Source of the DNA: Candidatus Eiseniibacteriota bacterium
Lineage (GTDB): Bacteria; Eisenbacteria; RBG-16-71-46; SZUA-252
NCBI GenBank assembly: GCA_005893165.1
Contig: VBOR01000061.1
Span: forward strand, 36,555-100,554
Reading direction: 5' to 3'
Length of the DNA stretch: 64,000 nucleotides
Positions 57,029 to 58,470 of the stretch are shown piece after piece. A program made the translations under genes and the position numbers. Within the stretch, counting starts at the first letter, position 1, and each line of letters starts with the position of its first letter. A model generated the notes under the pieces. The model was given only the letters and a program-made list of their open reading frames with translations. It did not search any database and was not told the origin of the DNA.

Positions 57029-57847
57029 TCAAATCCGCGCGGCCATGACCACGGGGCCGGCAGGCGCGGTCGCAGTCGGCGCACCGCCCTCGATCTCCAG
57101 TGAGATTGCGAAGGCCTGGAGCGTGAAGGGGTCGCCAGCGCTCTGGAGGCGGATCGTCGCCCGGCCGTCGCGGTCGGTGCGCACGAGGCCGAGGCTCGCG
57201 GGGCCCGTGTTCGTGATCGCCCAGAGCTGGTAATCCTTCCCCGGCGGCGCTACCAAACCCGACACCGAGACGATCGCCTGTCGGGTCGCGGGATCGTAGG
57301 TCACGCGGGCTTGGAGCTCACGCGACCCGGCCGGCGTGGGCCTGAGCTCGATCACGCGAGCCTGGGGTGCGGTGGCCATGGCGGTCCACCGACGCTCGCC
57401 CTCGATCTCCCGGTTCAGCCGCGTCACCTCCGCCCGTGATGCCGACAGCTCGCGCTGCAGCCGTGACGCCGCGCGCCATTCAATGAACCCGGACACGCCG
57501 AACACCACCGCCGCGAGCAAGGCGAGCCATGCGAAGACCGGCGTCTGGCGCCGGCGCGGGAAGGGAATCGGCGCGCGGCGCGCCTCCCGCGGTCCCTCAC
57601 GCTGCGCGGACTCTCCCAAGACGCTGCCGAGAACGCGTGCTCGCAATGGGGAGGGCTCCAGGAGCCGCGGCGTGGCGGCCGCGAACGCCCACACACCGCG
57701 CCCGAGACGGTGGATCTCGGTCTCGCAGGTCGGACACCCTTCCTTGAGATGGGCTTCGAGCGCGGCCCGCTCGGTCTCGCTGAGATTGCCGAGAACGTAA
57801 CCGGCGCAGCGCTCGAGCTGCTCGTCGCTGTGCGGGCTCAGGTCCAG
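57029..57847 (-). CDS. Anti-sigma factor with ZAS-type zinc-binding N-terminal domain (HxxxCxxC), single TM helix and periplasmic domain; start codon unresolved
   Basis: Conserved anti-sigma N-terminal domain SPHSDEQLERCAGYVLGNLSETERAALEAHLKEGCPTCETE is encoded in-frame upstream of the track start (GTG 57694). No ATG/GTG/TTG exists in that frame after the TGA at 57853..57851 (two CTG only). An ATG at 57854 lies in the +1 frame, 16 nt before the sigma stop. Confidence 0.65.
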   Translation of the reverse strand: MDLSPHSDEQLERCAGYVLGNLSETERAALEAHLKEGCPTCETEIHRLGRGVWAFAAATPRLLEPSPLRARVLGSVLGESAQREGPREARRAPIPFPRRRQTPVFAWLALLAAVVFGVSGFIEWRAASRLQRELSASRAEVTRLNREIEGERRWTAMATAPQARVIELRPTPAGSRELQARVTYDPATRQAIVSVSGLVAPPGKDYQLWAITNTGPASLGLVRTDRDGRATIRLQSAGDPFTLQAFAISLEIEGGAPTATAPAGPVVMAARI

Positions 57848-58395
57848 TCCTCATGGGGAACGAGATCGCTCAAGCGCACGAGTGCCTGCCGGGTCCACGA
57901 CTTGACCGTCCCGGGCTGCACGTTCAGCCGATCGGCGATCTCACTTTGGGTCAGGCCCTCAAAGTAGGTCAGCTCCAGAACCTGCCGATGTTGAGGGCCG
58001 AGGACGTCCAGGGCGCGACGGACCCGCTCGCTCATCTGTTGATGCGCCGCGTTCGCGGAGGCGTCCTCAGTCGGTGGGGGAGTATCGGCTCCAGGGGTCT
58101 GCCCGGCGCCCAGGCGGGAGCCCTCGCTGCGGAGCCGATCGATGGCCTTGTCCCTCGCCACCGTAACGAGCCACGCTCCGACTGTTCCGCGCCCCACATT
58201 GTAGGTTCCCGGCCCACGCCGGATCTGGAGCCAGCACTCCCGCAGAACCTGCTCCGCATCCGCCGGTTTTCTCACGATGCGCAGGGCCACGGAATAGAGG
58301 AGGCCGTTGTGCCGGTCGTAGAGCTCTTCGAGCGCACGGGTATCGCCGGTCCGGATCCCCTCGAGGCACGATCGATCGCGTTCCTGGCTGTTCAT
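57838..58395 (-). CDS. ECF-type RNA polymerase sigma factor (sigma-70 family regions 2 and 4)
   Basis: Region 2 (LEELYDRHNGLLYSVALRIVRKPADAEQVLRECWLQI) and region 4 HTH (LTYFEGLTQSEIADRLNVQPGTVKSWTRQALVRL). Directly upstream of the anti-sigma gene on the same strand. Confidence 0.85.
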   Translation of the reverse strand: MNSQERDRSCLEGIRTGDTRALEELYDRHNGLLYSVALRIVRKPADAEQVLRECWLQIRRGPGTYNVGRGTVGAWLVTVARDKAIDRLRSEGSRLGAGQTPGADTPPPTEDASANAAHQQMSERVRRALDVLGPQHRQVLELTYFEGLTQSEIADRLNVQPGTVKSWTRQALVRLSDLVPHEDWT

Positions 58396-58444
58396 GAGGC
58401 GCGCAGCTTACGTGCAGGGCGTGGATATCACAAGCAGGCTTACG

Positions 58445-58470
58445 AGCAGGTTGGAACGCTGGTGTTCCCA
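58445..58470 (+). promoter_or_regulatory. Candidate ECF-type promoter element(s): GGAAC-N6-GTTCC palindrome with GGAAC-N17-CGAT on the plus strand
   Basis: The divergent intergenic region between the ECF sigma gene (minus) and prx (plus) contains GGAACgctggtGTTCC. On the plus strand GGAAC is followed 17 nt later by CGAT. On the minus strand GGAACA is followed ~17 nt later by CTCGTA. Confidence 0.35.

Follow-up and report, generated by a model that had tools for sequence, protein, structure and literature searches.

A CTG codon at the conserved start of a SigK/RskA-like anti-sigma gene in an environmental Eisenbacteria population: a putative start-codon down-mutation

The closest described relative of the gene pair considered here is SigK/RskA of Mycobacterium tuberculosis (ECF19-type, PDB 4NQW), in which an extracytoplasmic function (ECF) sigma factor and its anti-sigma factor are encoded by adjacent, co-oriented genes. 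The anti-sigma factor of that pair has a short anti-sigma domain in the cytoplasm, a single hydrophobic helix and, outside the cytoplasm, an RskA_C domain. Mycobacterial SigK carries a redox-sensitive pair, C133/C183, and SigK without RskA is ‘low-on’, not fully on (PMC7509140). The zinc-binding anti-sigma (ZAS) factors RslA (3HUG), RsiW (5WUQ), RsrA and ChrR share a class-I anti-sigma domain in which a histidine and two cysteines, spaced H-x3-C-x2-C, lie at the junction of helices 2 and 3, with another cysteine upstream. A SigK/RskA-like pair with the same gene order and domain layout as in M. tuberculosis occurs in a 64,000-nucleotide stretch of DNA from an uncultured Candidatus Eisenbacteria population (contig VBOR01000061.1, positions 36,555 to 100,554; “the window” below means this whole stretch). 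Its anti-sigma gene has CTG at the position where the relatives have GTG or ATG as start, and the substitution is read here, on balance, as a down-mutation of a translationally coupled start codon.

A 4-nt overlap of stop and start codons is the commonest coupling arrangement in prokaryotes (PMC12548453). The present locus shares with such pairs both the overlap and a Shine-Dalgarno (SD) sequence inside the upstream gene, coupling being predicted here, and differs in the first base of NTGA, which is C in the window and G or A in all relatives. CTG starts also have precedents: that of rpsL in Deinococcus is supported by proteomics, and the same paper cites RepA of an Escherichia coli plasmid (PMC2830850). 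As in Deinococcus-Thermus rpsL, Deide_03051 and plasmid RepA (PMC2830850), a conserved N-terminus is found here 5′ of the first canonical start, with CTG where the homologues start. The CTG of rpsL is phylum-wide and confirmed by mass spectrometry, whereas that of the window belongs to one population and is predicted from sequence.

The sigma gene ends in GAC TGG ACC TGA; all positions given for the sigma and anti-sigma genes refer to the minus strand of the window. The anti-sigma frame is limited at its 5′ end by a TGA (57853-57851), continues as GGA CTG(57847) GAC CTG(57841) AGC CCG CAC and stays open until the stop at 57029. It translates as a stop followed by G L D L S P H S D E Q L E R C A G Y V L G N L S E T E R A A L E A H L K E G C P T C E T E. 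No ATG, GTG or TTG occurs in this frame 5′ of GTG 57694, and the list of open reading frames (ORFs) therefore contained only a 221-aa anti-sigma ORF. The first-pass annotation had observed that the conserved anti-sigma N-terminus has no canonical start, and that the ATG at 57854 lies in another frame, from which it could read into the domain only after loss of one C from AG-CCC-GC; both observations hold. The distance of 16 nt that it gave from this ATG to the sigma stop is right when counted to the last base of the stop, the interval from the A to the T of the stop being 14 nt. The elements of the junction are as follows.

57838..58395, minus strand: ECF sigma factor gene, SigK-like, 185 aa (Pfam Sigma70_r2, Sigma70_r4, Sigma70_ECF), with its stop TGA at 57840-57838
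57029..57841, minus strand: anti-sigma factor gene as proposed, 270 codons plus stop, with CTG 57841 as start
57839..57841, minus strand: CTG at the family’s conserved start position, overlapping the sigma stop as CTGA (57841-57838)
57848..57852, minus strand: GAGGA, SD-like, within the sigma Glu-Asp codons and 6 nt 5′ of CTG 57841
57845..57847, minus strand: upstream in-frame CTG, the start in the GenBank annotation (272 aa, MDLSPH...)
57851..57853, minus strand: in-frame TGA, the 5′ limit of the anti-sigma frame
57852..57854, minus strand: out-of-frame ATG, not a start, reading MRTGPEPAQRR...
57692..57694, minus strand: GTG, first canonical start in the anti-sigma frame, giving a 221-aa product without the anti-sigma domain

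Sigma/anti-sigma junctions were taken from metagenome and genome loci, which yielded 35 distinct ones at 34-72% protein identity. At the equivalent of 57841-57839, 28 of the 35 have GTG, seven have ATG and none has CTG. In every one of these junctions this codon overlaps the sigma stop as NTGA and is preceded by GAGGA or GGAGG, usually 6-7 nt upstream, and this SD falls within the codons for a conserved Glu-Glu/Asp-Trp at the C-terminus of sigma. GTG is the codon found in the three closest relatives (L043, L016 and L017, 72-75% identity). The window retains the same GAGGA at 6 nt but has CTG, and CTGA is seen only in this population. The G-to-C change is silent in the sigma gene, where ACG becomes ACC and Thr is kept. 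Downstream of it, L-S-P-H-S-D-E-Q-L-E-R-C-A-G-Y-V-L-G-N-L aligns ungapped with M/V-(S/T)-P-H-(K/R/T)-D-E-x-L-E-L-C-A-G-Y-V-L-G-N-L of the relatives, and the 270-codon anti-sigma is colinear with more than 90 full-length homologues. Relatives among species-representative genomes are almost all Candidatus Eisenbacteria metagenome-assembled genomes (MAGs), the best being 68% identical, so the window’s species is not among the representatives. A nearer lineage, L013 (92.5% nucleotide identity; Ga0137396_10132783), is known from a contig that begins at residue 17, the junction lying outside it.

A locus from Chthoniobacterales (L106) was considered as an independent CTGA case and rejected: here, as in the relatives of L106, the anti-sigma start is an ATG that lies two codons farther downstream. 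A scan of the window for other CTGA-coupled genes was swamped by spurious ORFs, since at this high GC content long ones occur in every frame.

The substitution is reproducible. The population sampled here comprises loci 99.2-100% identical to the window and is nearly clonal; its junction set of 36 loci, in which some contigs occur twice, comes from several assemblers and about 29 sample records in ENA, JGI, Logan and NCBI. Every fetched locus spanning the junction (n = 36) reads GAGGACTGGAC-CTG-AG-CCC-GCAC, with the CCC run and the CTG invariant. The contig collection lists the identical sigma protein in 58 blocks, and five variant sigma proteins of the same 90% cluster all come from the same population and all have CTGA. 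The CTG is thus a true single-base change and not a sequencing error.

The segment between the CTG and GTG 57694 bears the marks of a translated domain. Its third-position GC content across the three frames of 57841-57695 is 0.82/0.73/0.50; the rest of the anti-sigma gene and the sigma gene show the same pattern in their own frames, which identifies the segment as coding in the anti-sigma frame. For residues 2-50, comparison of the window with L043, L016 and L017 gives a Nei-Gojobori ratio of nonsynonymous to synonymous divergence (dN/dS) of 0.15-0.20 at dS 0.5-0.8, within the range of 0.11-0.40 found among relatives with canonical starts. The family-conserved residues are all kept in the window (C12, G14-Y15, L17-G18, E29, H31-L32, G35-C36 and C39). 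Within the population, the domain has two synonymous segregating sites (A13A and C36C) and no nonsynonymous one, and the roughly 30 loci that cover it are free of nonsynonymous, indel and stop polymorphism. Elsewhere in the anti-sigma gene there are about 14 nonsynonymous and about 10 synonymous sites, and in the sigma gene five and four. If the synonymous diversity outside the domain in the anti-sigma gene is taken as neutral, 8.6 variable sites are expected in 147 neutral bases and two are observed (Poisson P = 0.008 for two or fewer). These results favour continued translation of the domain, although a very recent loss of the start would be compatible with them.

In the family as a whole, ribosomes finishing the sigma gene would restart on the anti-sigma gene at the GTG or ATG of NTGA, since the start overlaps the sigma stop and GAGGA or GGAGG sits in the last sigma codons. 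In the population sampled here, one G-to-C change has turned this start into CTG. Ribosomes terminating at the sigma TGA may reinitiate at the overlapping CTG with initiator tRNA, or the GAGGA may recruit new 30S subunits to it, and CTG 57841, read as formylmethionine, most probably still serves as the start of the full-length 270-aa anti-sigma. The yield is expected to be well under that of GTG, as CUG gives about 0.1-3% of AUG initiation in E. coli as compared with 10-100% for GUG (10.1101/063800). A substantially lower anti-sigma:sigma ratio would follow and, because less anti-sigma would be made per sigma, a higher basal level of the sigma regulon. This reading, a leaky hypomorph in which weak CTG initiation at the coupled start yields less anti-sigma per sigma, is the one that we favour, with modest confidence. 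That NCBI’s pipeline likewise resorted to a CTG start (TMQ49136.1) speaks for it.

Several points weigh against it. A single, nearly clonal population (99.2-100% identity) accounts for every occurrence of the CTG allele, so the mutation could be recent and the intact domain simply undecayed. Its absence from all 35 relatives’ junctions suggests that CTG is normally selected against at this position, and start codons may differ in efficiency between E. coli and Eisenbacteria. Few sites underlie the dN/dS and polymorphism tests, the contrast between synonymous and nonsynonymous sites alone gives a Fisher P of 0.20, and several of the reference single-nucleotide polymorphisms are linked.

It is possible, if somewhat doubtful, that the CTG is a selected attenuator and not a defect. 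Since the CTG sits in the CTGA overlap behind a strong SD, only ribosomes coming directly from the translation of sigma would make the anti-sigma, in a low and fixed proportion, and the SigK-like factor would be kept permanently ‘low-on’. The clade’s apparent swap of an ECF-type for a housekeeping-type, possibly leaderless, sigma promoter (described below) would push in the same direction.

A start loss with null or near-null effect, in which little or no functional anti-sigma is made, sigma is unrestrained and the domain is intact because the mutation is young, appears unlikely. It draws on the lack of CTG among the relatives, on the confinement of the allele to one population at identities of at least 99.2% and on the low activity of CUG in E. 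coli cited above. The regulation of SigK/RskA pairs also varies in nature, by mutations of RskA in M. bovis and M. orygis and by its truncation in Nocardia (PMC7509140). Against it, the branch leading to the window shows no nonsynonymous excess in the domain, whose dN/dS of 0.15-0.20 is in the relatives’ range, and the domain has escaped the nonsynonymous changes that the periplasmic part has accumulated at about 14 sites. The apparent fixation of the allele over about 29 sample records is moreover easier to explain if it is tolerated or useful. The difference between start loss and a leaky CTG start is mainly one of degree, silent as compared with leaky.

Improbable is a start at the upstream in-frame CTG 57847. 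The GenBank entries with identical sequence are the Eisenbacteria MAG proteins TMQ49137.1 for the sigma factor and TMQ49136.1 (P0115) for the anti-sigma factor, and the latter is a 272-aa protein (MDLSPH...) for which NCBI’s pipeline chose this codon; the NCBI annotation thus already gives a CTG start, two codons 5′ of CTG 57841. Many relatives have ATG at the equivalent of 57847, and gene callers begin their proteins there (MDVSPH...). The codon at this position is nevertheless ATG, TTG, CTG or GTG among the relatives, some of which have no start codon there at all, and which codon is found depends on the third base of the Glu/Asp codon that precedes TGG in the sigma gene. The start is thus not conserved at this position. 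In addition, CTG 57847 abuts the GAGGA with 0 nt spacing, and the NTGA codon two positions 3′ of it is a canonical start in every relative. The role of CTG 57847 as a start is probably incidental, and the comparative evidence favours CTG 57841.

Still less probable is that translation begins at GTG 57694 and gives only a truncated product of 221 aa, a membrane-bound RskA_C domain without its sigma-binding domain, the 147 nt upstream being an untranslated relic. This GTG is the only canonical start and is the one used by gene callers, but no good SD lies 5′ of it (GGGCGCGGT), and its equivalent in full-length homologues is an internal Val or Ala and never the gene start. The 147 nt upstream have the third-position GC signature of coding sequence, low dN/dS and only synonymous polymorphism.

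It is hardly credible that the missing start is an artefact (one C of the CCC run being an assembly error) or a programmed frameshift, with translation from ATG 57854: removal of one C does yield MRTGPEPHSDEQ... in frame with the domain, but the CCC run is identical in the 36 loci, sample records and assemblers described above and falls in the Ser-Pro codons AGC-CCG-CAC (S-P-H), homologous to the S/T-P-H of all relatives, none of which needs a frameshift; ATG 57854 derives from a sigma CAT (His) codon that is CAC or CAA in the relatives and is not conserved; and the junction has no slippery heptamer at GAC TGG ACC TGA, no unusual RNA structure (fold z = 0.03) and no Rfam match. The assembly indel and the programmed +1 event that the first-pass annotation had proposed accordingly fall away, D-L-S-P-H aligning gap-free with D-V-S/T-P-H of the relatives. 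CTG initiation, which it had proposed as well, gains support in the more specific form of a GTG-to-CTG substitution at the family’s conserved start overlapping the sigma stop.

The two proteins themselves are readily assigned. The sigma factor is an ECF (group 4) sigma-70 factor of 185 aa with regions 2 and 4 (Pfam Sigma70_r2 1.3e-14, Sigma70_r4 1e-14 and Sigma70_ECF 2.9e-8; TIGR02937 87.1 bits against a cut-off of 42.9). Its best solved relative is M. tuberculosis SigK (PDB 4nqw_A, E = 3.9e-20), and its best NCBIfam models remain below their cut-offs (PRK12519 148.8 against 222 bits; SigK PRK09646 122 against 226), so that by these comparisons it resembles SigK yet is not an equivalog. Cysteines occur in it only at positions 10 and 54, and since its C-terminal half has none, the C133/C183 redox pair of mycobacterial SigK is missing. 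Together with the CTG start of the anti-sigma gene, the sub-threshold SigK score and the lack of this pair set the locus apart from M. tuberculosis SigK/RskA. The parts of the anti-sigma protein are listed below.

57695..57838, minus strand: cytoplasmic class-I anti-sigma domain, residues 2-49
57725..57751, minus strand: H31-x4-C36-x2-C39 (HLKEGCPTC), one residue longer than the zinc-binding motif HxxxCxxC
57806-57808, minus strand: Cys12, possible fourth ligand
57482..57538, minus strand: hydrophobic stretch VFAWLALLAAVVFGVSGFI, presumed from the sequence to be the single transmembrane helix
57050..57526, minus strand: RskA_C extracytoplasmic domain (Pfam PF10099), residues 108-266 of the 272-aa translation

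The anti-sigma gene lies directly 3′ of its cognate sigma gene, co-oriented and with the 4-nt overlap, as in the 35 relatives. Its product matches Pfam RskA_C (PF10099) with E = 3.6e-21 (76.3 bits against a cut-off of 29.4) and passes the NCBIfam model NF052375 ‘antisigma’ (105.5 bits, cut-off 100). Among solved structures, a profile of this anti-sigma family finds RslA (3hug_B, 1.1e-7), RsiW (5wuq_C, 3e-5) and RskA (4nqw_B, 6.9e-5). These matches, with SigK as the best solved relative of the sigma factor, lead us to class the pair as SigK/RskA-like with a ZAS-like but non-canonical Cys/His motif. The first-pass annotation had described the motif as HxxxCxxC and had proposed a regulon of the SigR/RsrA or RpoE/ChrR type. 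The motif is in fact one residue longer, and the RskA_C domain and the affinity to mycobacterial SigK point away from those types. HLxxGCxxC is kept across the anti-sigma family, whereas in RslA and distant relatives the spacing between His and Cys is one residue shorter and is aligned with a one-residue gap; Pfam zf-HC2 scores 17.9 bits on the anti-sigma, under its cut-off of 22.2. The class-I domain, the His and two Cys at the helix 2-3 junction and the upstream Cys are thus shared with the ZAS factors, while the spacing H-x4-C-x2-C and the C-terminal RskA_C domain are not, and any zinc-binding or redox role is putative. RskA of M. tuberculosis is not known to contain the Cys/His motif that the anti-sigma of the window carries.

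Upstream of the sigma gene, two divergent genes and two short elements are of interest.

58405..58433, minus strand: TTGTGA-N17-TAAGCT, resembling a housekeeping-type promoter, with its end 9 nt 5′ of the sigma ATG
58453..58468, no strand assigned: GGAAC-N6-GTTCC palindrome GGAACgctggtGTTCC, function unsupported
58561..59058, plus strand: peroxiredoxin (AhpC/TSA; prx) gene, divergent from the sigma gene (Pfam E = 1.5e-38)
59051..59596, plus strand: DsbA-like thioredoxin-fold gene with CPYC (Pfam Thioredoxin_4, DSBA)

All 21 of the Eisenbacteria relatives examined (L018-L082) have (G/A)TCC(A/G)-N15-CGTA(A/G)T with exact spacing about 40 nt 5′ of the sigma ATG, presumably the family’s autoregulated ECF promoter. 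The motif, TCC-N16-CGTA, is absent from both strands of the window’s sigma-prx intergenic region, where the best score of a position weight matrix built from the 21 relatives’ sites is -5, as compared with 22-33 for the true sites; L043 and L017 likewise have no ECF-type motif at that position. A regulon search of the window with the same matrix gave no site in the 22-33 range, the best matches being 17.3 at 5184 (minus strand), 15.2 at 8279 (plus strand), inside a 753-aa ORF on the other strand, and 15.2 at 58628 (minus strand). The last of these, tied as second-best in the window, is TTCGTCC-N16-CGTGAA at 58600-58628 (minus strand), inside prx and 233 nt 5′ of the sigma ATG; it has G (CGTG) where all 21 true sites have A (CGTA).

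In place of the ECF-type motif, the window, L043, L017 and L033 have CTTGTG(A/C)-N17-TAAGCT alone, with its end 9-10 nt 5′ of the ATG; in most other relatives this element lies farther upstream. This suggests a housekeeping-type promoter and a leaderless sigma mRNA in the clade. A strict consensus scan for sigma-70 promoters over 56900-58700 returned nothing and also missed TTGTGA-N17-TAAGCT.

The proximity of prx and dsbA had led the first-pass annotation to propose a thiol-oxidative-stress regulon, with ECF -35-like GGAAC on both strands of the intergenic region. Both genes are real by Pfam and are indeed divergent from the sigma gene. The palindrome is present at 58453-58468 and is the sole match in the window, where 0.06 would be expected, but its arms are not conserved in L017 (GCAAC and CTTCG), and it adjoins a polymorphic insertion site. 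Besides the window, divergent prx-dsbA stands beside the sigma gene only in L017, of the closest clade; in L047 and L036 prx/dsbA lie downstream of the anti-sigma gene instead, and some 30 further relatives whose upstream sequence is long enough do not show the synteny. The regulon is thus weakly supported: because the synteny is rare, the ECF motif is missing between sigma and prx and the palindrome is not conserved, control of prx/dsbA by this sigma factor is possible but unsupported. The DsbA-like gene is called as 181 aa (GTG 59051, with an 8-nt overlap with the prx stop) or as 164 aa by different assemblies of the same sequence (59051-59102, plus strand).

Near-identical contigs of the population differ around the locus. 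The sigma-prx intergenic region varies in length at window position 58451, between GTTCCAA and CCTGCTCG (minus strand), where L003 and L006 carry an insert of 82 nt, L008 a different one of 85 nt and L007 a run of N; the regions concerned are 2753-3001 in L003 and L006, 1945-2196 in L008 and 2593-2860 in L007. Read on the plus strand of the window, the L003 insert codes for VWDGRDGAGRLVAKGVYFYK, closely similar to the C-terminal sorting-domain motif AVWDGRDDQGRTVATGVYFYRL of a neighbouring 2058-aa protease; the insert is either a relic of the 3′ end of a gene or a repeat-induced assembly chimera. This protease, an S8 peptidase with a FlgD_ig-like C-terminal domain (50789-56965, plus strand), faces the anti-sigma gene in convergent orientation in most loci, the window included. 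In L004 (4431-6558) and L167 (2931-3558) an inositol-monophosphatase-family gene and an ABC transporter take its place, and this difference in the convergent gene between near-identical contigs marks a strain-level rearrangement breakpoint just after 57029. Four loci from different assemblies (L162, L163, L165 and L166) end at the last base of the sigma stop codon (...GGACCTGA); these ends may be true contig breaks, which would hint at strain heterogeneity 3′ of the junction, or an effect of how the loci were cut. Within the anti-sigma gene, the window carries the minority allele at 57390 (minus strand), Arg (CGG) at residue 102 in the 221-aa numbering, where 24 of 28 other population loci have Gln (CAG).

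The main value of the corrected gene model, 270 aa from a CTG that overlaps the sigma stop, is practical. Since the conserved GTG or ATG start has become a weak CTG, gene finders drop the sigma-binding domain: Prodigal-type calls in public metagenome collections shorten the anti-sigma to 221 or 205 aa. The NCBI annotation already gives a CTG start, at a slightly different codon, and Prodigal-type pipelines mis-call the gene. For the biology of this population, the locus is an ordinary regulatory variant in a known operon type and involves no new mechanism. It would represent a natural case in which mutation has weakened the start codon of an anti-sigma gene; the change appears to have reached fixation in an environmental population and leaves the protein encoded by the overlapping sigma gene unaltered. 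It is expected to raise basal activity of the ECF sigma factor, in parallel with the documented SigK/RskA variation in mycobacteria. Were the CTG a selected attenuator, it would represent natural tuning of sigma:anti-sigma stoichiometry by the choice of start codon.

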